A stretch of 47,953 nt of DNA from a virus (lineage: Duplodnaviria; Heunggongvirae; Uroviricota; Caudoviricetes): IMG/VR virus record IMGVR_UViG_2554235123_000011; one strand, 5' to 3'. How positions within the stretch are numbered: the first letter of the stretch is position 1; each line of letters starts with the position of its first letter. The notes beneath the pieces were generated by a model. It did not search any database. It was not told the DNA's origin and saw only the letters and a program-made list of their open reading frames with translations. Below, in pieces: positions 1,632 to 40,254 of the stretch. The position numbers and the translations under genes are program-made.

Positions 1632-4600
1632 TATGCAAGCCTCACAATATAGTTAAATGCGATGTTTTTGACGGTGTTTTCCGCGTTACCCGCAGCGTTA
1701 ACGGTGATGGTGTGTCCATGTGAACCAATCGCAACGGAGTGCGTATGCGCACCAATACCTACAGTATGTGCATGTGCGCCAGAACTTGCTGCAGTACCAG
1801 ACAGCGAGTGGGTATGAGCACCTGCTGACTGTGTCTGAATACGTTGATAATACGATCTATAGGAAGAAGTCTCCGGGCTTACTTGATACTGTGAATTCTG
1901 GACATAAGTGAACCCACCGCCATCATAAAATGCTAACGCAGAACCGCCGCCTCCTGGCCAACGAATACCATTACCATGAGTATGAACACCGGCAGACCCC
2001 GTAGAGCCACTCAGACTGTGCGTATGCGCCCCGGTGTTATTCGTGGATTTAGTGCCGTAATCAAACGACGATGTGGTTTTCGTCCCCAAATCCGTACTGG
2101 ATGCGCTGGCGCTGTGGGTGTGCGATTTTATGCCGTCCTGTTCCTGAGACAATACGGCCCGGCCACTGGCGGGTTTGCCCTTGATTGTCCAGCCGCGCAT
2201 ATCTGGAATAACACCTGAAGGATAGGCAATAGCCAGTTTCGGATATGCTGCCTTATCAAACGTCTGCCCCTGCATGATCGCATAACCTGCAGGTGGTGTA
2301 TCTGATGGCCACGGCAGCGGAACACCTGGCGGAAACGCTTCAATATTTGCCGAGCCGTCAAATTTTACGCCGTTAATTGTCCTTGCAGTTTGCAATTTGG
2401 TTGCTGTGCTTGCATTACCCGATAAAGATCCAGTGATACCACCACTCGCGTTTAATTTAGTTGCAATTGTAACATTGCCAGTATGGTTACTAATTATAAA
2501 CGGCCTTAAGCTATTGTGCGTACCAAGACTGTTACCCGAATCTGTCAACATAAAATATGTGTTTGATCCATCATTTCGGATAAAGAATCCATAGTTGCCA
2601 TAGGCAATACGCAGACCATTTGCTGACCTTGAAATAACCTCACCAGCAGCAGTTAAACCACCTGAAAGAGTCCCTCCAGTTAATGCCAATGCCCCAATAT
2701 TTGAAGGGGTCAATGTGATATTTGCACTACCATCAAATGACACACCGTTAATCGTTCTGGCTGCCTGAAGTTTCGTGGCGGTCGCAGCATTACCTGTAGT
2801 GTTTTGATTACCGGTAGCGTTGACTCCAGGCAAGTTGATATCTGCCGATCCATCAAATGCCACGCCCCCAATCTTACGTGCTGTCTTGATCTTGGTCGCA
2901 GTATCTGCGTTTCCGGTCAAATTACCAGTAACACTACCACCAACTTTTAGTCCATTACCGATGGACACCAACCCTGATCTTAAGTTTATAGAGAATGGTC
3001 TTAATGAACCGATGTCTCCATTTTCCCCCTCCCCTTCATTAGTCGGAATAAGATGAAGATGATCTTCGGAACGCCTAAAAATAAGGCCAAAGGCTTGGTT
3101 GAATATTCGAAGAGCATTTATCGTGCTGATTTTTAACTGCCCTCCCATTGTGTCGCCAGTTTTTTGAACTGAACTATCTTTAACAGTTTTAACTGCCTTT
3201 GGCGTTGCCGCCAGCTTTTCACTGGTGCTGTTTGTTGCACTGCTGAGCTGTACTATCCCCTTTTTCGTCGTGCTCGCATCCTCCAGCGCCACGGCGGATG
3301 CAATATCCTCTGCCCGTTTTGCTGCTGTCTCGGCGCGCGTTGCCGCGGATTCAGCAGCAACTTTGCTCTGAGATGCAGCCGTCGCACTGCCTGCCGCCTC
3401 TGATGCTTTCGTTGTTGCTGTCGTGGCACTACCTTTCGCTGCTGACGCTTGTCTGGTCGCCTCATCTTTTGAAGCAGACGCAGATGATGCCGATGACGCC
3501 GCTGAACTGGCTGACGATGCGGCTGCCGCCTTAGAGGAAGCAGCATTGTCTGCTGAAGTCTTTGCATTTGTTTCAGAGGTTTTTGCTGCAGAAGCAGACC
3601 TCGCTGCTGCAGTGGCTTGCTCAGTGGCTTTGCCAGCCTTCGTTGTGGCTGTTGAAGCGGATGATGCGGCGCTTTCTGCCGATTTTCCGGCGGCGGTGGC
3701 ACTGGCTGAGGCCTGCCCGGCACTTGTTGACGCGGCACTGGCAGATAATGCAGCCGCTGTTTTTGAACCTGCCGCAGCTGAGGCGCTCTGTCCCGCTGCT
3801 GTTTCAGAAGACTTAGCGTTCGTCTCGGACGTTTTTGCCGCCTTCGCGGAATTTCCTGCCGCCGTTGCCGAGGAAGCTGCACTACTGGCACTTGATGATG
3901 CATTCGTTTCTGAAGATTTCGCTGCCTCTTTTGAGGCCGCCGCACCCCGTGCCGAGGTGGCAGCTTCTGACGCCTTCATGGTCGCTGTGGATGCAGAAGT
4001 GGCTGCCGATTTTTGTGATGCTGCGGCATTCGTTTCTGACGTTTTCGCGGCACTGGCGCTGGTAGCTGCCGCGCTTTTTGATGACTCTGCAGCAGCAGCA
4101 CTTTTTGCTGCTTCACGGGCCTTTGTCGATGCCGTTCCTGCGCTGGAAGACGCTGACTGAGCCGACGACGCGGCCTGTCCGGCTGACGTGCTGGCGGCAC
4201 GTGCTGAGGCTGCAGCATCGGTTGCATGAGTTGCCGCCTCGCTGGCTGATGCACTGGCATCGCTGGCTGATTTTTTCGCGGCTGCCGTATTCTGTGCAAC
4301 CGCGGAGGCGTTACGTGACACCTCTTCCACCATCTGCTCAAAGCGGCGCAGTGCCTCCGGTCGGACATCATCCTCCGTCATGGCACCGAGAAAATCATTC
4401 AGCGTACCTGGTCTGGAACCTTCATAGACGGTAATGGTCCCGGCATGTGAAGGCGGAAAACCTTCAACCAGCAGGGTGACGCTGTACTGGCCATGCCCAA
4501 CATCCATGCTGTAACGTCCGGCTTCATCCGGATTTTCAGAGGCCACCGTGTTCACCACCACCGTGCTGCTGGTTCGTCTGGCCTTCAGCACAATGGTGCA

Positions 4601-22270: not shown

Positions 22271-22473
22271 AACCTCACTCCCAGCGGACGACGGCGACGG
22301 CGGGTTGTCCCCAGTACCAACTCAGCATCATTGATCGCACGGTTAAGCTCATCCAGAGAGGCCGCCGTATATTCAATTCTTCGTCCATCTTTCTGGACAG
22401 ACACCACCCGTTTACCGGTTAATAAATCAAGGCGCGCCTGACGCAGCGCCTGCAGTTCAGCGACTGTAACCAT
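22267..22473 (-). CDS. W: Head-tail joining protein W (68 aa)
   Basis: Same length as lambda gpW. Confidence 0.9.
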   Translation of the reverse strand: MVTVAELQALRQARLDLLTGKRVVSVQKDGRRIEYTAASLDELNRAINDAELVLGTTRRRRRPLGVRL

Positions 22474-24385
22474 TCACTCCTCCGGACAGCTTCGCTGCCA
22501 GTTCTTTAAGGGTTGGCCGGGTCGTCTCTTCTTCCCGGGATTTTGCCAGTACAGCCAGATCAAGCTGCCAGCGTTGCACGGACACACGTAATGCCGCGTA
22601 GGCATACACCAGGCAGTCCAGCGCTTCGTTACGCCGCTTTTTGTTATCCCACAGCAGACGCATCTTTCCTTTTTCCCACTTCTCCACAAGCTCTTCCGCG
22701 ACCAGTTGCTGCGCCTCTGTCTGCGAAAAAATCTCCGGATCATCAGGAAAACGGATGGCATACGACGTGGCTTCATCCGCAGGCGTGGGCTCGGCTTTCA
22801 TACGGGCATAGAGAATTTCTTTTGCGGTGTCCGTCCCCACTTCACACAGATAAACGCCCCGCTGATTGCGGGTTTTCGGCATGGTGATCACCGGCTTGCC
22901 ATAGACAGACGCGCCTTTTACCGGCAGCACACGGAAAACACCGTGTTTTTTTGACCTCTGGTAGACGATTTCACCATCGATCCCCCCGGTGTCCCAGCAG
23001 ACACGGGAAATGGTCATTTCGGTGCCATCCGCATGGCGGTATTTTTTGTTGATCGCCGCATCCACACGTAACAGCGTCTCTTCCTCATCAGGACGCCCCA
23101 TAATGATGATTTTATCCACCAGAAAAGCTTCCTCTCCCGGTGCCCATCCCCAGACATACATCTCAAAACGGTTTCGCTGCGAGTCAATGCCCGCCGTCAG
23201 ATAAACCACCCGGGCAGGCACCGCCGCCGTGTAACGCACAACCTTATCCATCAGCACCTGGTGATCGAGTTTTTCGCCCACGGCCTCTTCCCAGGTCTCG
23301 CCCAGCGTGGTGTTCACAAAGGTTTTCAGGCCGTTGGGATCTTTCAGTGCATCCAGCCAGTCATAGACTATCTGTACCCAGGTGGTGAACGGACTGTACG
23401 CTGTCCAGATATGGAACGTGATGGAGCGCGGCGGCGGAATTTCATTATCCGCGGCGCTGAAAAACGTCAGACCGTCACGGGTCCACATCCCCGTGTTTTC
23501 ACAGATCCACCGCCCGTTGCTCTGGTCAAGCTCAGACTGATGGATCACGCAGCCATGATGTTCACAGAGGTAGAAAACGCTTTCGGGGCTGTCCTTCTCC
23601 CATTTAAGGCCAAAAGGCGTGGATTCATCGCCAAATTTCAGATACTGCTCCTCCCCACAGTGTGGGCAGGGCACATAAAAACGCATGAAATGCGCCGACT
23701 CGTTGGCCGCTTTTTCGATCTGGCAGGTGCCTTTGATTTTAGGCGTCGAGCCGCGAATGGATTTGGGCCATACAGAGCCCTCAATACGTTTATCCCCAAG
23801 CAGGGTTGGCGAACCCTCTTTTTCGACATCCGGTTCGAACGAGGAAAGTTCGTCATAGCAGACCACGTCCACGGATTTTTCACGGTAGTTTTTGGCGGCA
23901 GCGCCGCCCAGGCACCAGAAACCCACACCCGATGAAAAGCGTTTCAGCGTGAGGGTATTGTCACGATGTTTACGCCCCAGCCATGGAAAAAGGTCTTTCA
24001 GACATGGCACATCCCGAATCGTCGCCTCCACGTGAGACTTCATAAAATCTTCAGCGGCAGAATCCGTGGGCTGAAAAAGCAGACTGTTTCGGGATTTATG
24101 CTCAATAAAATACCCGACCACCCCCAGCAACATCTTTGTATAGCCAACACGGGCAGATTTAATCAGATTAACAGTCCGGATCTGATCATTCCCCATGCTG
24201 TTCATGATGGCGATCTGGAACGGCAGCGTTTTCCATTCTCCCTCACCATATGAAGATTCTTTAGGCAGATAATAATTTTGATCAGCCCATTCAACTGGCG
24301 TCACCGGCAATGCCCTTATCAGGGGCTGTAATGCTGTTGTGACAGCACTCATCATATTATTCAGTTGTTGCTCTGATATATTCAT
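22457..24385 (-). CDS. A: Terminase large subunit A (~642 aa from MNISEQQ...)
   Basis: lambda gpA-like throughout as remembered (e.g. CPHCGEEQYLKFGD, WTAYSPFTTWVQIV). Confidence 0.95.
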   Translation of the reverse strand: MNISEQQLNNMMSAVTTALQPLIRALPVTPVEWADQNYYLPKESSYGEGEWKTLPFQIAIMNSMGNDQIRTVNLIKSARVGYTKMLLGVVGYFIEHKSRNSLLFQPTDSAAEDFMKSHVEATIRDVPCLKDLFPWLGRKHRDNTLTLKRFSSGVGFWCLGGAAAKNYREKSVDVVCYDELSSFEPDVEKEGSPTLLGDKRIEGSVWPKSIRGSTPKIKGTCQIEKAANESAHFMRFYVPCPHCGEEQYLKFGDESTPFGLKWEKDSPESVFYLCEHHGCVIHQSELDQSNGRWICENTGMWTRDGLTFFSAADNEIPPPRSITFHIWTAYSPFTTWVQIVYDWLDALKDPNGLKTFVNTTLGETWEEAVGEKLDHQVLMDKVVRYTAAVPARVVYLTAGIDSQRNRFEMYVWGWAPGEEAFLVDKIIIMGRPDEEETLLRVDAAINKKYRHADGTEMTISRVCWDTGGIDGEIVYQRSKKHGVFRVLPVKGASVYGKPVITMPKTRNQRGVYLCEVGTDTAKEILYARMKAEPTPADEATSYAIRFPDDPEIFSQTEAQQLVAEELVEKWEKGKMRLLWDNKKRRNEALDCLVYAYAALRVSVQRWQLDLAVLAKSREEETTRPTLKELAAKLSGGVNGYSR

Positions 24386-24866
24386 CGAGTAAATCCGGTA
24401 ATTTATCCCCCGCCCGCGCACACTGATTTGCCCCCTTCGCAATAAGGGTTTTCAGATGGTCAAGATGGCGCGGTGTTAAATCAGGAAACTGTCGCTGCAT
24501 GGATAAAGGGATGGAATCAAGCGTACTGGATAACGCCATTGCCAGCTTGCTGAGGGCAAAAATACAGAACCCGGTATCAATAAGTTTTCCTTTTGACACC
24601 TCATTTTTTAACTGCTGTGTAACAGCCTGTTCTGCTGTCAGTTCCCATCTGGCAATAAGCAATTTCTCCTCATAGTCGTCTTCGCTATCGCCATCAGGCA
24701 CATCGTTTTTACTTCTTCTCAGATACGATATGTAAAAATCGCGCCAGGCATCCAGATCCAGTTGCCCTCGCTTATTCGATATCGGGGCACCCGGCAATTT
24801 CTGCAATCTGCGAAGCTGGCGATCGGTCAGACTTAAATGCCTGGCAACTTCAGTCTGCGTAGCCAC
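24357..24866 (-). CDS. nu1: Terminase small subunit Nu1 (169 aa, N-terminal HTH)
   Basis: Position between cos and A; HTH at N-terminus; C-terminus ...LPDLLDEYIRATTE resembles lambda Nu1. Confidence 0.8.
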   Translation of the reverse strand: MATQTEVARHLSLTDRQLRRLQKLPGAPISNKRGQLDLDAWRDFYISYLRRSKNDVPDGDSEDDYEEKLLIARWELTAEQAVTQQLKNEVSKGKLIDTGFCIFALSKLAMALSSTLDSIPLSMQRQFPDLTPRHLDHLKTLIAKGANQCARAGDKLPDLLDEYIRATTE

Positions 24867-30968: not shown

Positions 30969-31658
30969 TTAATTGACTTTTGCAATATCTCGTCGTGAAA
31001 AGGTCGCTTTTTGTTGCGCTCTTATTTTCACGGAGCAAATCAAGGATTCTCTATCGAGGCGCTTAAAAATATCGCACATCTCACGCCAGTAGTTCGCATA
31101 ATTATGGCTCCAGTTATCAGGCTTAACTCCACACAGTCTGGCAAGCTCCTGTCTCTGGTAGACCTCACACCCGGTAACCCATCCTCTGACATCCTGTGCC
31201 GCCAGCCAGATCAACTTCTTCACACGCTCCAGCGTTTTCACTGCAATTTTTCTGGAGCCGGACTGAGTTTTAAATTCACTCCACCCCCACTGCGTTATCG
31301 CGATCTGATGCTCCCAGCAAATGTTTCCGCCATAACACCACAACAACCACGCCTTCTGATGTTCTTCCAGTTCCAGAACAGCACGCCGCCACGATGATGT
31401 TGCAAACTCAACAGGACTGACCAGCGCAATTGATGAGCCTTTCGCCAGTGATTGTTTACCCTGGATCGGGGGATTATCCCGCGTGATCATTTTTCCGGTT
31501 ACCTCATCGCGGTAACGAATTTTTTTGCGTCTGTAACGCCCTGTATCGAACAGGGCATTTTCCTGCCAGGCTTCCAGCTGGCATTTTGTCGACCCACTGA
31601 GATCTGCAGTGGCAATCATGAGTTGCTCACGAACAAACTGTAAATACTGGTTATTCAT
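30969..31658 (-). CDS. Late-gene antiterminator Q (~229 aa)
   Basis: Position between rusA and the lysis cassette; not lambda-Q-like in sequence; SD GAGGTGGG before ATG. Confidence 0.6.
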   Translation of the reverse strand: MNNQYLQFVREQLMIATADLSGSTKCQLEAWQENALFDTGRYRRKKIRYRDEVTGKMITRDNPPIQGKQSLAKGSSIALVSPVEFATSSWRRAVLELEEHQKAWLLWCYGGNICWEHQIAITQWGWSEFKTQSGSRKIAVKTLERVKKLIWLAAQDVRGWVTGCEVYQRQELARLCGVKPDNWSHNYANYWREMCDIFKRLDRESLICSVKIRAQQKATFSRRDIAKVN

Positions 31659-32019
31659 GCACACCCACCTCTGTAATTCTTATCTCCAGCCGTCCACCAG
31701 ATACTGGCTGGCCACGTACAATATTGATTTCATCAAACTGCTCATCGTCCATTAACAACCCCGCGTGCGTCAGCGCATCCAGTGGTGCTTTCAGAATATT
31801 GTCCAGGTCACGACGACGCTTATCCGGTGGCTCTGCAATAATTTTTATTGCCAGCCGTCCGGACAGGCTTAATTTCAGTCGCTGCTGGCGAACAATAAGC
31901 GCCACTGCCCGGCGATAACGCTCCCCGGCTTTTGATACAAAATATGTGCTGCCACGGCGTCGCCAGTAAGTGTTCACCGTCGGCGAGTAAGGCAAAACAA
32001 ATTCTATGCGTTCGGTCAT
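31651..32019 (-). CDS. rusA: Holliday junction resolvase RusA (122 aa)
   Basis: ...PPDKRRRDLDNILKAPLDALTHAGLLMDDEQ...GGRLEIRITE matches the RusA catalytic region. Confidence 0.9.
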   Translation of the reverse strand: MTERIEFVLPYSPTVNTYWRRRGSTYFVSKAGERYRRAVALIVRQQRLKLSLSGRLAIKIIAEPPDKRRRDLDNILKAPLDALTHAGLLMDDEQFDEINIVRGQPVSGGRLEIRITEVGVHE

Positions 32020-33078
32020 TTATGCTTTCCACTTCAGAACACCCGAATTTCTCGCGTGCATTAAAAAACGAATCAGCAACAACAACTGACTACCGTGTTT
32101 TTCTTCAAAATCTTTTACCCCGGCGTGTAGTTCGTTATGGCATTTACGACACAGCGGAATAACAAACAAATCGTCAGCCTTTGTTCCCATCCCTCCCAGT
32201 CCATGACCAATGATGTGATGCGGATCATCTGCCTGATTGCCACACGTCATGCATTTCTGCGTTTTTACCCAGCGCGTGTATACAGGCATCTCTTCCCGTT
32301 GTGGTTTCTGGCGCTGGAGATACTGAGCCGGAGATTCCGGATCAACGGCAATGCTGACCACCGTCTTTTCCTGTGGTGGGTTCTGTTGCTGGTGGGCGTG
32401 AGGCAGCGGCGCAAGATTTTTTGTGCGCTGTTTCAGTATGCTGGTGGCGGTCTGCTCTCCCGGTACGATGTCGCTTTCACGGTACATTGAGCGGATTTTT
32501 TCCGCACGCAACCCCAGCGAACGACGTAATACCGCTTCCGGTAGCGCGTCCGCCACCTGATTGCGGACCGCCCACCAGGATAATTCAGCCAGCGATAATT
32601 CCCGTTCCTGCGAGCCATTCATTGCATGGCGTATGACGTCAATCATCCATGCAGACAGGTTTTGGTGAGCAAGTTGCCCGAGTGATTCGGAGGTCTGGTC
32701 GCGCAGCTGGTTGTCGCAGTGCCAGCACAACACCATTGCGCCGGTACCATAACGGTGAATGACGGTTTCACTGTGGTGATAATCGCCGTGTGGCCACTGG
32801 CAGGATTTAACATGGCGCAGTAACCAGTCAGACAATGCGCCAGCGCCACCAGCAGCACGAATCACTCGTTCGTCGCTGAAAAATGGCAGTAATGATTTAT
32901 CCTCCGCCAGCGGCTGGCGAACGGCAGGAACGACCCCGGACGACAGATTACGCATGCTTTTCGGTTCCGGCTCCACCAGTACCCGGGTATTGTGGAATAC
33001 CGGCATGGATTCACGGCCCGGTTTTAGCACCACCAGCCCAAGTTCCGGTACCAGAACAGGTCGAAGTAATACCCGCAC
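32020..33078 (-). CDS. DUF968-like nin-region protein with C-terminal HNH-like Cys/His motif (352 aa)
   Basis: C-terminal CMTCGNQADDPHHIIGHGLGG...PLCRKCHNELH; resembles YdfU-type prophage proteins. Confidence 0.65.
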   Translation of the reverse strand: MRVLLRPVLVPELGLVVLKPGRESMPVFHNTRVLVEPEPKSMRNLSSGVVPAVRQPLAEDKSLLPFFSDERVIRAAGGAGALSDWLLRHVKSCQWPHGDYHHSETVIHRYGTGAMVLCWHCDNQLRDQTSESLGQLAHQNLSAWMIDVIRHAMNGSQERELSLAELSWWAVRNQVADALPEAVLRRSLGLRAEKIRSMYRESDIVPGEQTATSILKQRTKNLAPLPHAHQQQNPPQEKTVVSIAVDPESPAQYLQRQKPQREEMPVYTRWVKTQKCMTCGNQADDPHHIIGHGLGGMGTKADDLFVIPLCRKCHNELHAGVKDFEEKHGSQLLLLIRFLMHARNSGVLKWKA

Positions 33079-33794: not shown

Positions 33795-33824
33795 AATAAA
33801 AACAAAAACCCGCCGAAGCGGGTT
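33795..33824 (-). terminator. hok mRNA intrinsic terminator
   Basis: Stem AACCCGC/GCGGGTT with 4-nt loop, followed on the minus strand by TTTTTGTTTTTATTTT. Confidence 0.6.
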
Positions 33825-33892
33825 AAGTGCGGGTGCGTTGAGGATGCCTGCCACATCAGAGGTGGCGAGGGATTTCTCCCTCGCCTGGTCTC

Positions 33893-34048
33893 TTACTCCT
33901 CAGGTTCGTAAGCTGTGAAGACAGCGACCTCCGTCTGGCCGGTTCGGATTCGTACCTCGCAGAGGTCTTTCCTCGTTACCAGTGCCGTCACTATGACGGT
34001 TAAACAGATGACGATCAGGGCGATTAACATCGCCTTTTGCTGCTTCAT
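33893..34048 (-). CDS. hokD: Hok/Gef-family type I toxin (51 aa)
   Basis: MKQQKAMLIALIVICLTVIVTALVTRKDLCEVRIRTGQTEVAVFTAYEPEE, as remembered for HokD/RelF. Confidence 0.85.
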   Translation of the reverse strand: MKQQKAMLIALIVICLTVIVTALVTRKDLCEVRIRTGQTEVAVFTAYEPEE

Positions 34049-34309
34049 AGCCTGCTTCTCCTTGACCTTTCGGCCCGTAAGAGGCTAACCTACATGTGTC
34101 TAGCATGAAATATGGCCTCAGATTAATGTTAAGCGTCTTGCAGGACGCGTAATGTTAACTGGGGCTTTTCTCTATCTGCCTTTTGGTGTTCATGCCTGAG
34201 ACAGATAGCCTCAAGCACCCGCAGTTATTCTACTTAACTAAGATTTCCCCGCAAACCGTTTTTGTCCGGCACAGTAAATATCCAACTAAACCAATGGCGT
34301 TCGCTGTAT

Positions 34310-34489
34310 TTACCGCCAGTATTCAATGCACATGACCGCCATGAACACCCCTAAAAAAAGGGCATTTATATGTCCAAACATTAATATCAAAACATCAATT
34401 TTTTCCATATACCTTGCTGTGAAGATGATGGGCATACATGATGCGAACAACCAGAACGCAACAAACAAAAACTGCAATGCGTTTTTCAT
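34310..34489 (-). CDS. Small membrane protein (59 aa, two predicted TM helices), AT-rich
   Basis: SD GGGGGA before ATG 34489; MKNALQFLFVAFWLFASCMPIIFTARYMEKIDVLILMFGHINALFLGVFMAVMCIEYWR. Confidence 0.4.
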   Translation of the reverse strand: MKNALQFLFVAFWLFASCMPIIFTARYMEKIDVLILMFGHINALFLGVFMAVMCIEYWR

Positions 34490-34609
34490 TATTCCCCCTA
34501 CAATCAATGTGCAATAACATTTAAACACACCTCAATTTGGCCGGACATATAAATATCTAAACCAGAAAAAATCACTTACATAGCGTTACAAACTCTTTAG
34601 TCTAAATAT

Positions 34610-35596
34610 TCATCGTAAAACATCCTCCACGCTTATCAGTCCATTTCGTTTCAGGTAATCCATCGCCTTCTCCGGTAATTTGCAGTCCGGCTGAGCTTTT
34701 TTCAGTTGACTGACCAGTCGTTTAACCCACATTGTTAATTCGCTAACCTGGTTACCTAGCGCTGGCGACGCTACTGTCTGTTCCAGAACGTCATCAGGTA
34801 CTACCGGCTCTACTGCCAACTGACTGGCATATTTGTTAATGGTAACGATAAGCTCTTGCTCGGCCTCATCCAGACAATCACCGATACCTCGCCTGTCACC
34901 GTCAAAATCATCGAAATCGGCGCGAATCCTGGCAACCTCCCGGATTGCGGACAACACCTCACCAGGAATTACCGGAGAGTTGCCCGATAGTGCATTCTGC
35001 TCCAGTGATGCCTTTACAAACCACGCGGCCTGAACTATTACGCCATGAATCCAGCGCAAATCAGCATCGCGATCTTTCTTTTTCATCTTTTCGCCACTTA
35101 AAGCCTGGCTTATGTGGCTACGTACAAGGTCTTCATGTAACACCTTCGCATCCTCAATGGTGAAACCACCAGGCAGGCGAGCCGGGGTTACATGAGGGTT
35201 GCCTTCCCCCTGACTCTGAAGCATGGCGGCGCGGTAGGCATTCCAGCCTCTCACCTCTGCAATAGCGGCAACATCATCGACCGCGTACATTTTAAGAGGG
35301 TTAGGCATTGGTTTTTCTTCAGATACTACTGGCACTGGAGGGGCGGCATAAACAGGAATAACGTCCGCTTGCTCTTTATTGCTTTCATCCGTTAAAGCCC
35401 AGAATAATTTCCCGGCCGGATGTTTGAAAATATAAGCAACTGGTTCTGCGCTATCAGCTTCGCGCCGCTTCTGTAGCTCTGCTGCCATTGCGCTCACGAC
35501 TTCAACTGGTGCCCTTGCAGCAAACTCTATGTTGGTGATAAGCTCATTAAGATATTGCTCGCTGGGATACTGTTTCTTATTGGTAATAGTGGTCAT
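34610..35596 (-). CDS. Hypothetical protein (328 aa); N-terminal region paralogous to the 135-aa protein at 35960..36367
   Basis: Shares the motif AAPPVPVVSEE and preceding pattern with the 135-aa ORF; start overlaps the HNH stop. Confidence 0.55.
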   Translation of the reverse strand: MTTITNKKQYPSEQYLNELITNIEFAARAPVEVVSAMAAELQKRREADSAEPVAYIFKHPAGKLFWALTDESNKEQADVIPVYAAPPVPVVSEEKPMPNPLKMYAVDDVAAIAEVRGWNAYRAAMLQSQGEGNPHVTPARLPGGFTIEDAKVLHEDLVRSHISQALSGEKMKKKDRDADLRWIHGVIVQAAWFVKASLEQNALSGNSPVIPGEVLSAIREVARIRADFDDFDGDRRGIGDCLDEAEQELIVTINKYASQLAVEPVVPDDVLEQTVASPALGNQVSELTMWVKRLVSQLKKAQPDCKLPEKAMDYLKRNGLISVEDVLR

Positions 35597-35958
35597 GCTG
35601 TAGCCCCTTCTTGATATTTTTCAAACCAGAACACAACCGGGTCAGATTTCATTTCAACCAATCCCATACGAACCAGCGCTTTGCCTTTCCCGGACGCAAG
35701 GAATTCACGACGACCATCACTGATAATTCGCCGATAGTCTTCCAGGCTACTGCAATGCTTGTGCAGATTGCATGGGTGGCATGCCGGAACCATGTTGGAT
35801 ATATCGTCACGTTCCTGGTGAAGCATATTTCCATTAAAACGAATGACCGGTTTTACATGGTCTGCATGCCACTTTTCGCCAAGTTCACAGCCGCAATAAG
35901 CACAGCGACCGCCAAACTTCATGCGCAATTCTGCACGTTGTTTTTTCGTCAGTGCCAT
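35593..35958 (-). CDS. HNH endonuclease (121 aa)
   Basis: CAYCGCEL...HADHVKPV...NMVPACHPCNLHK HNH motif. Confidence 0.8.
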   Translation of the reverse strand: MALTKKQRAELRMKFGGRCAYCGCELGEKWHADHVKPVIRFNGNMLHQERDDISNMVPACHPCNLHKHCSSLEDYRRIISDGRREFLASGKGKALVRMGLVEMKSDPVVFWFEKYQEGATA

Positions 35959-35959
35959 A

Positions 35960-36367
35960 TCAGTCTCCTTTGATGCCAGTGTTTACAACCTGGCAGGCCT
36001 CTTTGAGCACCCAGTCAACAGCGTCTTTCCATGCTCCGGTTTCGACTGGCGGATTTTCACGCTTAACCTTTTCATAGAAGCGCACGGCTTTAACCAGTTC
36101 TTCAGACACAACCGGCACAGGTGGAGCTGCGAATAGTGGTTTAGGTGATATCTCCGCACGTTTTGCGTATGCTTCAACTGTGTCAGGATTAAACAGGATT
36201 ATGTTTTCGCCGCATTTCCACGCTATCGGTTCCGCTTCTAGCGATGCCAGTGCAATTTTGAATAACTCACCCTCTACCCGTGCCATCCCTGAATTCGTGT
36301 GGCATTTCGCAATCGCTATTTTTAATTTGGCTTCTTCGATTAATTGCTCTTTTGTTAATTCAGTCAT
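35960..36367 (-). CDS. Hypothetical protein (135 aa), paralogous to the N-terminus of the 328-aa ORF
   Basis: Shared AAPPVPVVSEE motif. Confidence 0.5.
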   Translation of the reverse strand: MTELTKEQLIEEAKLKIAIAKCHTNSGMARVEGELFKIALASLEAEPIAWKCGENIILFNPDTVEAYAKRAEISPKPLFAAPPVPVVSEELVKAVRFYEKVKRENPPVETGAWKDAVDWVLKEACQVVNTGIKGD

Positions 36368-36462
36368 TTTTCATTACCGCCCTTTCGGGCGGCCTCCTGA
36401 TGTTCTGAGGGTGCAGAAATCCCTCCGGTTAAGGATAAAATTTTTAACAGTGCTAAATTTAA

Positions 36463-36819
36463 TTATTCAGTTCTGGATTTTGTCGCCCTGCATATCCGCG
36501 CTTTCGCGTTACGCTCAATCTGAATTAACTTTTCTATATTTTTCCGCCTTTCCTGTTCCTCCTGGCGCAATAGCCTTACATCATCTGCCAGTCTGGTTTC
36601 TCTTTTCGCCACAGAGAGCATCCAGTCAAACGGCTCCACAACTGCACCGCAGATTTTACAGCGGACCTGACGCTCTTTTTCGTCAACCCGAACAGAGGCG
36701 TGATGACAATATGGTCTTTCCGATGACTCATAAAGAAAATTAACCTGATTACGAGGGTCATCCTCTTTTACCGGAAATAAAACGATATTGCTTAACTCAT
36801 CCTCTGGTTTTATTTCCAT
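36463..36819 (-). CDS. Hypothetical protein with zinc-ribbon-like motif (118 aa)
   Basis: CHH...CKICG Cys/His cluster. Confidence 0.45.
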   Translation of the reverse strand: MEIKPEDELSNIVLFPVKEDDPRNQVNFLYESSERPYCHHASVRVDEKERQVRCKICGAVVEPFDWMLSVAKRETRLADDVRLLRQEEQERRKNIEKLIQIERNAKARICRATKSRTE

Positions 36820-37258
36820 GCTCCTCTCCTTTGATGCGAATGCCAGCGACGCGTAATGCGTGTTCTAGGTCAATCAGGTAAAGCCAACTGCCATTTTCTT
36901 TAGGTATCATGACATGTCGCTCATCTGCATTTATCGGATGTCCATATCGAAGGTCGTAGCGAGTCGGTAATTGAACTTCCCGCGCTTCCAGTTCAGCAAT
37001 ACGCTTACTCCCATCAGAGATAACGCCTTCGTAATACTCACGCTGCTCGTTGAGTTGTGATTTTGCTTCTTCCAGTCCATCCAGCAAATCAGCGATAATA
37101 TCCGCTTCCCGATGACGGATGTGACGCTTAAACGCAGCAAGAGCCGCATCACAATCCCGTTCAGCATTTGGGCTGTCCGGGATAGCCTGATACCACGCCA
37201 GCGTCGACTGATAGTTTTGTGCTGCCTCACGAAGCGCCTCATAGTTAACCTCTCTCAT
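36797..37258 (-). CDS. Hypothetical protein (153 aa)
   Basis: ORF in operon context. Confidence 0.45.
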   Translation of the reverse strand: MREVNYEALREAAQNYQSTLAWYQAIPDSPNAERDCDAALAAFKRHIRHREADIIADLLDGLEEAKSQLNEQREYYEGVISDGSKRIAELEAREVQLPTRYDLRYGHPINADERHVMIPKENGSWLYLIDLEHALRVAGIRIKGEEHGNKTRG

Positions 37259-37551
37259 TGAGCCACCTCCTGATAAATCACCGCATGCCCCAGTTTCTCC
37301 GCCAGTGCCAGCTCTGCCTTAGCGCCCGCTGACCGCTGCCAGCCATTCAGCATGTAAATCGCATCCACACAACGAATCATTGCCATGCAAATATCCATGT
37401 AGTGCGGCTGTGTCAGCCCGTCCGGAAGTACTGCCGGGTTTAAGACGGTATGCCCTTCCCGTTTCAGTTCCTCTTCCGCCTTGTGAAACGCCTCACGGTT
37501 GAAATTTTCATATCCCGTCATTGGACCGGCAATATAAACTCTCACCCTCAC
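37255..37551 (-). CDS. DUF4406-like (nucleoside 2-deoxyribosyltransferase-like fold) protein, GTG start
   Basis: VRVYIAGPMTGYENFN... typical of the family; GTG start overlaps the upstream stop (GTGA) with SD GGAG. Confidence 0.6.
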   Translation of the reverse strand: MRVRVYIAGPMTGYENFNREAFHKAEEELKREGHTVLNPAVLPDGLTQPHYMDICMAMIRCVDAIYMLNGWQRSAGAKAELALAEKLGHAVIYQEVAQ

Positions 37552-38759: not shown

Positions 38760-39221
38760 TCAAATAAAACCAGCTGCCTTCCGGCGTTCGTATTCCTGTT
38801 TCAGCCGTTCAATTGGCGTTGGCCCTTGCGGGTGTTTCGCCCCTTCCAGTTGTCGTCGCACTGGCGGAACACTCATCCCGTTACCAACATGCTTTGCCCA
38901 TTTCGTCAGTTGCCGTTCTGCAAGTCGTTTTAACTCACCCTGCGTCATCTGGCGCTCAATCCCTCTGGTACGCATTTCGAGGCAGATGTGGTACAGCACA
39001 GGCTGAGGCCACGGATATTTGTCGCTTCCGTCATATCGCCAGGACTCATCACGCCAGCGGCGGTACTCCTCCATCACAGCATCCACCGTCAGGCCAAATG
39101 GATTGGCCCCGCTTTCTGAAATCAGCGCCACAAACTCAGCCAGGTCCGGAGGCCATGTTTCACCCGCCCGGCAGCGGTCCATGCACTGGCGGCAGACCTG
39201 TCGGATTTGCTGCTCAGTCAT
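38760..39221 (-). CDS. Replication protein P-like (helicase loader); start uncertain, ORF open to 39425
   Basis: ...SDKYPWPQPVLYHICLEMRTRG... resembles the lambda P region; ATG 39221 lies 5 nt before the O stop. Confidence 0.5.
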   Translation of the reverse strand: MTEQQIRQVCRQCMDRCRAGETWPPDLAEFVALISESGANPFGLTVDAVMEEYRRWRDESWRYDGSDKYPWPQPVLYHICLEMRTRGIERQMTQGELKRLAERQLTKWAKHVGNGMSVPPVRRQLEGAKHPQGPTPIERLKQEYERRKAAGFI

Positions 39222-40254
39222 CGCGCCAATCTGTGCAATCCAGAGCTTCGAAGGTGCGGCCCCGTTCTTCTGGGTCCAGCGGTTCGAATAAACCTCCCCC
39301 ATGAGTTCCCACAGCTTCCAGACCGTTTCCGTCGCTGATAAATCCGTTTTCACGTTCCCACTGCTCACGTGCTGCCCGAATTTCCTGAACTGCCCGTGAT
39401 GCGGTGCCACCTGGTGCTGCTGCATGGTTTACCCCCTTGCTGACTGGTTTAACCTGCGCCCTGACGTGATTTACGTGACGGGCGAATTTCTGCTCCCACT
39501 GAATCTGCGTAAACACTTTCCCCTCCGCTGCCCAGTAGTCCCGGAAGGCGGCAAGTTCAGCAGGTGTAAATTCTGTCTCCGGCAAAGCCATCCCCCACAA
39601 CGCAGCCCGTCGTCGAAAATCCCGTGACGGATACCAGCTATCGGTCATCGGAAATTTTCCGATGGGTTCGCTCAGGCCATCCAGGAATACAAGGGGTGCT
39701 GCCTGTAACGACAAAACTTCCTGCTCACTGGTCGGAGCACTCTCGCGTGCGTTATGTGTGGGGTTTAGATCTTTGGGTTCCTTTGGGTTCCGTGATCCGT
39801 TTTTGGGTGTCTTTGATGGAAAATTTGGGTGTCTTTGGTTATTTTCCATGCAGCTAAGAGTTCCGTTTTTGGGTCTGTTTTGTGCTGAAACATAACCATT
39901 TTCGGTACTGTTTTTATTAACAGCACCAATTTTACCCACCTTTAAAGACTCCCGTTTTTGGGTGTATTCAGGCTCGGCAACACTTTCTTCTACACCGATA
40001 AGTCGGTACACCACAATTTGCTTTGTTCTGCCTTTTCTCTCACCGGTATCAACAATTAACCCAATCTCCATCAGGTGTCGTAAGCTGTCCTGCACAGTCT
40101 TTTTGTTCAGTTCCGTTACTTCTGCCAGTGCAGATACAGACGGGTATGCACACAAATCGGCACCGCACATATCAGCAAGCCAGGTCAATACAGACTTACT
40201 GGATGAACTGCCGGTTTTCACCTTTTTAGCCCATCGTAGTGCATCGATACTCAT
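39214..40254 (-). CDS. Replication initiator O-like protein (HTH N-terminus; iterons within the gene)
   Basis: MSIDALRWAKK... HTH; origin-like iterons inside the coding sequence. Confidence 0.7.
   Translation of the reverse strand: MSIDALRWAKKVKTGSSSSKSVLTWLADMCGADLCAYPSVSALAEVTELNKKTVQDSLRHLMEIGLIVDTGERKGRTKQIVVYRLIGVEESVAEPEYTQKRESLKVGKIGAVNKNSTENGYVSAQNRPKNGTLSCMENNQRHPNFPSKTPKNGSRNPKEPKDLNPTHNARESAPTSEQEVLSLQAAPLVFLDGLSEPIGKFPMTDSWYPSRDFRRRAALWGMALPETEFTPAELAAFRDYWAAEGKVFTQIQWEQKFARHVNHVRAQVKPVSKGVNHAAAPGGTASRAVQEIRAAREQWERENGFISDGNGLEAVGTHGGGLFEPLDPEERGRTFEALDCTDWRDD
39770..39966. repeat. Origin-like iteron cluster (CCGTTTTTGGGTGTC-type repeats) plus AT-rich tract inside the O-like gene
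   Basis: ccgtttttgggtgtc (39797), tttgggtgtc (39824), ccgtttttgggtc (39863), cccgtttttgggtgt (39951), ctttgggttc x2 (39771..39790); AT-rich 39909..39935. Confidence 0.6.

Follow-up and report, generated by a model that had tools for sequence, protein, structure and literature searches.

Free-standing homing endonuclease genes of phages, such as the mob genes of the T4 family and I-HmuI of SPO1, are known for a pattern of insertion, sporadic presence and decay. The Ea22 proteins of lambda and Stx phages have a mosaic block structure and a pro-lysogenic effect, the mechanism of which is not known (PMC10834534; PMC7093339). Both systems bear on a segment, positions 34610–37551, of a 47,953-nucleotide (nt) stretch of viral DNA (IMG/VR record IMGVR_UViG_2554235123_000011, hereafter the window) in which a gene for a small HNH endonuclease lies between genes for 135- and 328-residue proteins. 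Pfam scans and the RefSeq annotation of NZ_CP033884 identify the whole stretch as a Rac/Qin-type lambdoid E. coli prophage. A first-pass annotation had proposed that the nuclease and its two neighbors, regarded as paralogous partners, could form a homing, recombination or exclusion module. Analysis of the locus divides this proposal: the trio is contradicted by other neighbors of the HNH gene, by HNH-less alleles and by homologues in unrelated phages, and homing is reasonable for HNH alone, since its recurrent position between Ea22/DUF4014 and EaA/DUF551 genes fits insertion at a conserved junction. The segment is probably a mosaic early-gene array that carries a separate, self-contained HNH cassette, a free-standing homing-type gene lodged at a conserved junction.

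The HNH gene codes for 121 residues (35593–35958, minus strand, as for all genes discussed here) and does sit between the genes for the 135-residue (35960–36367) and 328-residue (34610–35596) proteins, as first described. Read from its junctions, its insertion is exact: the stop codon and ribosome-binding site of the preceding gene lie on one side, and the ATG of the following gene on the other. Counted from the HNH ATG up to, but not including, the ATG of the next gene, the cassette is 362 nt long (35597–35958, minus strand). Homology of the HNH block to other loci breaks off sharply, at 35970–35976 and at 35580/81. The upstream breakpoint lies 12–18 nt outside the HNH ATG in every E. coli prophage or ArgO145 context that shares the whole block, and the downstream breakpoint lies 12–13 nt into the next gene in many contexts.

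Alleles lacking the cassette are found as well. With an artificial HNH-deleted junction as query, contiguous matches were obtained, and the exact empty site reads …GGAGAGTGAT/ATGACCAC…. Two empty sequences, L032 and L033, are otherwise ~90% identical to the filled window on both sides; they read …AAAGGAGAGTGAT/ATGACCACTATAACC…, where the window reads …AAAGGAGACTGAT/(HNH)/ATGACCACTATTACC…. L033 is a second empty site, with an Ea22-like gene upstream. In E. coli AR_0055, around position 809,226 of NZ_CP021935, a 119-residue gene carrying the C-terminal module of the 135-residue protein is followed directly by a DUF551 gene carrying the N-terminal module of the 328-residue protein (junction …GGCATCAAAGGAGAGTGAT/ATGACCACTATAACCGATAAGAAACAG…; window junctions …GGCATCAAAGGAGACTGAT/ATGGCACTG…(HNH)…GCTACAGC/ATGACCACTATTACCAATAAGAAACAG…). 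The upstream genes terminate in …IKG[ED]-stop, and the codons involved, AAAGGAGA, are the ribosome-binding site for whichever gene comes next. This junction motif has one occurrence in the window.

A census of 5426 complete E. coli genomes found the complete HNH gene in 385 (7%). The arrangement seen in the window, with the 3' end of the 135-residue gene, HNH and the 5' end of the 328-residue gene in succession, is present in just 129 genomes, all ~100% identical and thus a single prophage lineage. Copies of HNH that are 98–99% identical have at least six other neighbor combinations, spread across the exo-xis and nin-like regions of lambdoid prophages. Recorded contexts are a 142-residue gene–HNH–114-residue gene; the 135-residue gene–DUF4014–HNH followed by a 114-residue gene, a 271-residue DUF551 gene or a 77-residue gene; and, in both exo-xis and nin-like regions, Ead_Ea22 (150–229 residues)–HNH–DUF551 (188–302 residues) and DUF4014–HNH–DUF551. 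HNH-less arrays of the form 135-residue gene–DUF4014–175- or 198-residue gene also occur. In the Stx phage ArgO145 the HNH gene lies in the exo-xis region between gp12 (DUF4014) and gp10, and more distant copies (50–61% identity) stand in the order Ea22–HNH–DUF4014–EaA in HK225 and a P22-like phage. In lambdoid prophages the gene on one side of HNH is nearly always of the Ea22 type or DUF4014, and that on the other side of the EaA/DUF551 type. Full-length homologues with 41–76% identity are found in a T1-like coliphage, T4-like RB49, and Acinetobacter, Vibrio and Caulobacter phages (about 49% to the window protein), and weaker ones (27–33%) in Streptococcus phages; none of these homologues has Ea22-type neighbors, and that of RB49 sits directly after the DNA ligase gene.

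In a further ~320 E. coli genomes (6%), all that is present of the HNH gene is its last 48–51 nt; joined to an EaA-type N-terminal module, they make up a 55-residue open reading frame (ORF) that reads …LASLEAEPVVFWFEKYQEGATA. The HNH tail, PVVFWFE.Y, is intrinsic to the family, with F110, F112 and E113 invariant; because it is conserved across the HNH family, the 55-residue ORFs are interpreted as HNH deletion remnants. Those at 4013–4180 of L002 and 2513–2680 of L009 contain the last ~15 HNH codons and are annotated as 'EaA protein' or 'hypothetical'. The window itself contains a 15-nt near-repeat (13/15 identical) between the HNH tail codons S-D-P-V-V-F at 35631–35645 and the linker codons P-V-P-V-V-S of the 135-residue gene at 36106–36120, and this microhomology could mediate the deletions that yield HNH scars. 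Two other observations concern the HNH neighborhood elsewhere. The gene for DUF4014, a 72-residue membrane protein, is often the immediate HNH neighbor on either side in other phages and is absent from this window. In Shigella sonnei, a 194-residue protein (P0242) fuses DUF4014 with HNH (PF13198 + PF01844), probably through read-through or a sequencing error at a TGAnATG junction.

The assignment of the 121-residue protein as an HNH endonuclease holds: it passes PF01844 with 31.7 bits against a cut-off of 21.4 and matches phrog_2118 with E 1e-56. It keeps the residues that are invariant in 51 homologues, C19, C22, H31, D33, H34, N55, C60, C63 and N64, a set that comprises the catalytic and zinc residues (two CxxC zinc pairs, H-A-D-H, N55 and N64). 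The AlphaFold2 model, with a predicted local distance difference test score (pLDDT) of 90.9, is a minimal HNH domain, followed after the core by just a helical C-terminal extension (residues 72–114). The structures nearest to it, the Gme HNH nicking enzyme and the HNH domains of Cas9 and Cap5, all match weakly (template modeling score ~0.48, E ≥ 0.027); the structure search gave no match at E ≤ 0.001. Compared with eight other E. coli copies, the gene shows 5–12 nucleotide differences, with ratios of synonymous to non-synonymous codon differences of 8:1 to 10:2 in four of the eight comparisons and 3:2 to 6:1 in the other four. Since the changes are mostly synonymous, the gene is under purifying selection, and both sequence and model indicate an intact minimal HNH nuclease.

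The two flanking proteins tell a different story, that of a mosaic family. They had been described as a paralogous pair, which holds for one ~50-residue module common to both (BLASTP 44% identity, E 1e-5) and fails for the remainder, where the proteins are unrelated; what the alignments support is a shared module and not whole-protein paralogy. The 328-residue protein is a patchwork of three PHROGs, phrog_6847 (residues 1–97), phrog_14306 (202–294) and phrog_660 (281–328). It comprises an N-terminal module of the EaA/DUF551 family (1–97, including the shared beta module and a linker), a helical middle, and a 45-residue C-terminal module that recurs in 114-, 175-, 187- and 198-residue relatives and is 76% identical to ArgO145 gp10. 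The 135-residue protein falls in phrog_660/5117/26213 and matches positions 3–143 of phrog_660. From its N-terminus, an EaA-type helix module is joined by the linker IALASLEAEPIAW to a variable beta module, and this in turn by the linker PLFAAPPVPVVSEE to a C-terminal module ending in ...GIKGD, whose codons (AAAGGAGA) are the ribosome-binding site for the HNH gene.

Homologues of the 328-residue protein fall into at least 7971 clusters; almost all of these come from E. coli prophages, and they are 190–530 residues long and match differing parts of the query. Homologues of the 135-residue protein form 1616 clusters. Aligned, they show a variable N-terminal helix (MTxxTKE…) and a near-invariant linker, IALASLEAEP[VI]AW, followed by at least five unrelated alternative cassettes in the middle, one of them a CxxC zinc knuckle, and then a second conserved linker, PL[FY]xAPPVPVV[PS]E, and alternative C-terminal modules. 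PPxPxxPE-type linkers are present in 73/120 and 70/120 of the listed homologues. One relative (P0193) has the middle cassette of the 328-residue type inside an otherwise 135-type protein, and most homologues of the 328-residue protein carry a C-terminal DUF551 domain (PF04448). The 328-residue protein itself has the family's N-terminal modules and a differing C-terminal module, with no match to PF04448. In a Pfam scan neither flanking protein reached any family at E ≤ 0.1, the thresholds of PF13935 and PF04448 included; both share modules with carriers of these domains (e.g. P0159, P0201). By these alignments, the 135- and 328-residue proteins belong to a very large mosaic family of the P22 EaA, lambda Ea22 and DUF551-protein type. 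Interchangeable cassettes in this family are bounded by short conserved linkers (IALASLEAEPVAW; PL[FY]xAPPVPVV[PS]E) and likewise by conserved gene junctions (…IKGE/D-stop, AAAGGAGAnTGAnATG; MTTITKE starts).

The exact motif AAPPVPVVSEE does occur in both proteins, as first noticed: at residues 80–90 of the 135-residue protein (36098–36130, minus strand) and residues 84–94 of the 328-residue protein (35315–35347, minus strand). The two DNA copies are 79% identical and differ at 7/33 positions, and every change is synonymous; the identity is thus held at the protein level and does not reflect a recent DNA duplication. Within the family alignment, the motif reads as a family-wide linker and not as the signature of a dedicated pair. 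Two 187-residue relatives (P0138, P0144) join residues 1–125 of the 135-residue protein to the 45-residue C-terminal module of the 328-residue protein, so that the two window genes hold both ends of a gene that is single elsewhere. The possibility that the two ORFs are halves of one decayed gene was rejected as the main explanation because both are intact, each has many full-length homologues, and IKGD/E-stop is itself a widespread cassette end.

The start of the 328-residue gene deserves separate mention. RefSeq NZ_CP033884 annotates only the last 204 codons of this ORF (4215619–4216233; WP_369759143.1), leaving out 369 nt. Support for the full ORF comes from the phrog_6847 match on residues 1–97 (E 2e-55), from database entries of 328 residues and from the ATGA by which it overlaps the HNH stop, a conserved feature; the RefSeq start looks like a start-site error.

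The homing reading of the HNH gene draws on the module anatomy, the sharp cassette edges, the varied neighbors, the empty-site alleles, the decay remnants and the purifying selection described above. By analogy, a gene that is inserted at a defined site, occurs sporadically, is under selection where it is present and decays to remnants would follow the usual life-history of free-standing homing genes. The block would be transcribed early, within the PR operon, and its genes translated in a coupled fashion. As a homing-type selfish nuclease, HNH would introduce a cut or nick near the conserved junction of alleles that lack it when two lambdoid genomes are in one cell, either by co-infection or because a phage meets a prophage; repair by recombination, with the HNH-bearing copy as template, would then spread the gene. 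Red-type recombinases of phages are reported to recombine diverged sequences efficiently (PMC2327257). The flanking proteins would act independently, as early accessory proteins comparable to lambda Ea22 in shifting the balance between lysis and lysogeny.

Four observations weigh against this reading. First, graded co-conversion tracts around HNH were looked for and none was found; homology ends abruptly at the ORF edges. Second, domain and structure searches with the HNH protein found no known DNA-binding domain, and a bare 121-residue core is unusual for a site-specific homing enzyme. Third, the recurrent adjacency of Ea22-type and DUF551-type genes to HNH, with translational coupling, could also mean a functional link. 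Fourth, the AlphaFold2 model of the 328-residue protein is poor and uninformative (pLDDT 43 from a 40-sequence alignment); it indicates no more than a helical hairpin at the N-terminus and, after it, a small sheet of three strands, the counterpart of the shared module, with helices following.

The first two of these observations also appear in the case for a serious alternative, to which we assign a real if minor chance: a domesticated phage nuclease that benefits the phage or prophage through DNA degradation, superinfection exclusion or recombination, and whose scatter reflects ordinary cassette exchange. Strong purifying selection, a minimal nuclease in which no specificity domain was detected, and homology that ends at ORF borders as abruptly as for every other cassette in the array would all suit such a gene, as would its early-operon place among accessory genes, where the neighboring DUF977 protein matches a 'Ren-like exclusion' PHROG. 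A beneficial gene is harder to reconcile with frequent loss, ~320 genomes having only a remnant, and with presence in just 7% of E. coli genomes, though lambdoid prophages are far commoner. Spread over unrelated phage families between conserved genes, as after the DNA ligase gene of RB49, is moreover the classic homing-gene pattern.

It is also conceivable, though improbable, that HNH recognizes the conserved junction or linker sequences of Ea22/EaA/DUF551 arrays (AAAGGAGAnTGAnATGACC) and that breaks made there drive cassette shuffling. HNH would then be a diversification engine for a possible host-takeover or anti-defense gene family, and no mere passenger. What makes this idea a testable one, and nothing beyond that, is a recent report that a phage homing endonuclease promotes rearrangement of anti-defense loci (PMC13096335).

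Decidedly improbable is the dedicated module implied by the first-pass annotation, in which HNH would serve recombination, exclusion or defense together with its two flanking proteins, which might be its targeting or regulatory subunits. The three genes are indeed tightly coupled (TGAtATG, ATGA), lambdoid HNH genes almost always stand between the same broad families (Ead_Ea22/DUF4014 upstream, DUF551/EaA-type downstream), and the shared linker is kept at the protein level despite seven synonymous DNA changes. Co-occurrence of the pair with HNH had been chosen beforehand as the test of the module, and it was found in only 129/385 HNH-bearing genomes, confined to one near-clonal lineage, so that the module fails on this test; nearly identical HNH genes have the other neighbor combinations listed above. 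Both flanking gene types also adjoin each other without HNH, and no such neighbors accompany the homologues in T1-like, T4-like, Acinetobacter and Caulobacter phages. A search of the PADLOC defense library gave generic, weak HNH-core matches only (PtuB, PDC-M01B), with no PtuA or other partner gene.

A packaging-associated HNH protein that assists terminase in cos cleavage, like HK97 gp74, can be dismissed as having next to no likelihood: the sizes are similar (121 and 119 residues), a small enzyme, the Gme HNH nicking enzyme 4h9d, heads the PDB sequence matches (weakly, E 0.047) and in a few related prophages the array lies 1–2 kb from a small terminase gene, but BLASTP gives no alignment to gp74, the same HNH also occurs in the exo-xis region of Stx phages, and the window carries a lambda-type Nu1/gpA terminase that itself includes a nuclease domain (22457–24866), 11 kb off beyond Q and the lysis genes.

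The HNH cassette and its neighbors form part of a block of six genes. Upstream of the three described above are a gene for a 118-residue protein (36463–36819; phrog_1621, E 3e-55), an Ead/Ea22-like gene for 153 residues (36797–37258; PF13935, phrog_250) and a DUF4406 gene for 98 residues (37255–37551; PF14359, E 1e-37; phrog_355). The segment had been described as seven tightly packed minus-strand genes with overlapping stops and starts. The strand and the reality of the ORFs are confirmed, the number is six, and the overlaps are borne out at the junctions except for one that is open by 95 nt, between the 118- and 135-residue genes. The 328-residue gene and HNH overlap by ATGA, HNH and the 135-residue gene are joined by TGAtATG with a 1-nt spacer, the 118- and 153-residue genes overlap by 23 nt, and the 153-residue and DUF4406 genes again overlap by ATGA. 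At the head of the block, the GTG start of the DUF4406 gene (37551) overlaps the stop of the upstream DUF977/Ren-like gene as GTGA; this early observation is correct, and RefSeq has the identical start. A search for terminator-like sites on the minus strand within the six-gene block detected none.

The DUF4406 assignment is confirmed by a full-length PF14359 match (2–91 of 91; 128.9 bits against a cut-off of 22), and the family is related to nucleoside 2-deoxyribosyltransferases. Not all proteins of the segment are uncharacterized, as had been stated: the 153-residue protein is Ead/Ea22-like, passing PF13935 with 46.7 bits against a cut-off of 27. It shares blocks with ArgO145 gp18 and ends in ...GIRIKGEEHGNKTRG, its IKGE codons (AAAGGAGA) being the ribosome-binding site of the following gene. 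The zinc-ribbon label given to the 118-residue protein rests on a weak Zn_Ribbon_TF match below threshold; the protein does contain a C-H-H ... CxxC arrangement, followed by a helical tail, and its gene is a conserved cassette with 96.5% DNA identity to ArgO145 gp17. PDB sequence searches with the 328-, 135-, 153-residue, zinc-ribbon and DUF4406 proteins gave no meaningful match, an NCBIfam scan gave names to none of the uncharacterized proteins of the segment, and literature searches on DUF4014, on DUF4406 and on HNH in the exo-xis region found nothing relevant.

The 95-nt intergenic linker (36368–36462, minus strand) is kept between otherwise differing gene arrays; in ArgO145 it is 88% identical and precedes another gene, DUF4014. 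The linker contains a GC-rich hairpin with a GAAA tetraloop (36376–36393, minus strand; GCCGCCC-GAAA-GGGCGGT), placed between an AGGAGG sequence and the ATG of the 135-residue gene. The fold has a z-score of only -2.4; from its placement, it may be a translational-spacing or RNA-processing element.

The block is part of a 3.3-kb segment that recurs, with 100% identity, in the chromosomal prophages of many RefSeq E. coli genomes, and at least 80% of this segment is covered in 128 of them. The gene order, all on the minus strand, starts with cro-like, YdaT, DnaT-like initiator, P (38760–39425), DUF1627 and DUF977/Ren-like. It continues through DUF4406, the Ead/Ea22-like 153-residue, zinc-ribbon 118-residue, 135-residue, HNH and 328-residue genes to sok/hokD, rem, DUF968, RusA, Q (30969–31664), the lysis genes and the terminase. 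The segment at 34610–37551 is thus a hypervariable accessory-gene array in the early-right operon, between the replication genes and hokD/rem/DUF968/rusA/Q. The earlier label of a nin region is apt for its position between P and Q and for nothing else: in a Pfam scan none of the segment's proteins reached a Nin family threshold, and no orthologue of NinA to NinH is present. The HNH protein scores 18.9 bits against NinG (PF05766; cut-off 25.4) and aligns with only positions 93–147 of the 193 in the profile; membership in NinG was rejected, since the match is sub-threshold and limited to the core motif.

Several features lie just beyond the block. Directly downstream of the 328-residue gene is a complete hokD/sok type I toxin–antitoxin locus (33893–34220, minus strand), with a Hok toxin ORF at 33893–34048 (phrog_251, NCBIfam Hok) and a sok RNA at 34046–34220 (Rfam RF01794, 113.5 bits against a gathering score of 59). 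The latter, outside 34610–37551, was the sole match of the Rfam scan. Just downstream of hokD, at 33803–33884 (minus strand), is a weak, sub-threshold Rfam match to the prophage small RNA isrK (E 0.019; 25.7 bits, the gathering score being 50); its end is marked by a terminator-like hairpin and T-run (33807–33824). The AT-rich gap between the 328-residue gene and sok/hokD holds an unannotated hydrophobic ORF of 59–72 residues (34310–34528, minus strand), for which PHROG, Pfam and NCBIfam gave no match and which may not be a real gene. Farther downstream, the 352-residue DUF968 protein (32020–33078, minus strand), whose gene adjoins that of RusA, carries a putative HNH-type domain (HNHc_6, 31.8 bits against a cut-off of 26.6), so the operon would encode a second HNH-like nuclease.

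The locus is of wider use in four respects. It exemplifies how the very large Ea22/EaA/DUF551 family exchanges sub-gene cassettes, at short conserved linkers and at gene junctions. It also exemplifies a small HNH gene that comes and goes at one such junction: 7% of complete E. coli genomes have it intact, and another 6% keep its scar. The pair of filled and empty junctions is a ready substrate for asking whether a minimal HNH protein homes and whether nuclease breaks feed lambdoid mosaicism. Finally, the apparent start-site error in the RefSeq entry for the 328-residue gene is flagged.

Literature searches found no paper describing this HNH cassette or its junction, and the locus is best placed by comparison with four known systems. 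Like HK97 gp74, HNH is a small stand-alone HNH protein in a lambdoid phage; unlike gp74, to which it has no sequence similarity, it is not beside the terminase, which here is of the lambda Nu1/gpA type. It shares with lambda NinG/Rap (PF05766), a junction-specific endonuclease of HNH-like type, a weak core alignment and a genomic place from the replication genes to Q, but is 121 residues long and not ~200, stays below the family cut-off (18.9 < 25.4 bits, core motif only), and lies in a prophage whose resolvase role is already filled by the downstream RusA gene. The array resembles lambda Ea22, the Ea22 variants of Stx phages and P22 EaA/Ead, which are early, non-essential and highly mosaic lambdoid proteins whose N-terminal parts are helical or coiled-coil and whose C-terminal domains can be swapped. 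The 153-residue protein is a true PF13935 member and most homologues of the 328-residue protein are annotated DUF551, whereas the 135- and 328-residue proteins themselves fall below the PF13935 and PF04448 thresholds and the array occupies the nin-like slot of the early-right operon instead of the exo-xis region. With free-standing HNH homing genes, the cassette has in common a stand-alone ORF between genes, sporadic occurrence across unrelated phages, presence and absence at one site, decay remnants and a catalytic motif kept intact under purifying selection. It differs from them in having 121 residues only and no recognizable DNA-binding extension, in its zero-length intergenic junction, where the stop overlaps the next start, and in the absence of graded co-conversion tracts. 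Rather than a new nuclease system, the locus combines two components of known kinds, mosaic early proteins of the Ea22/EaA/DUF551 type and a free-standing HNH gene.

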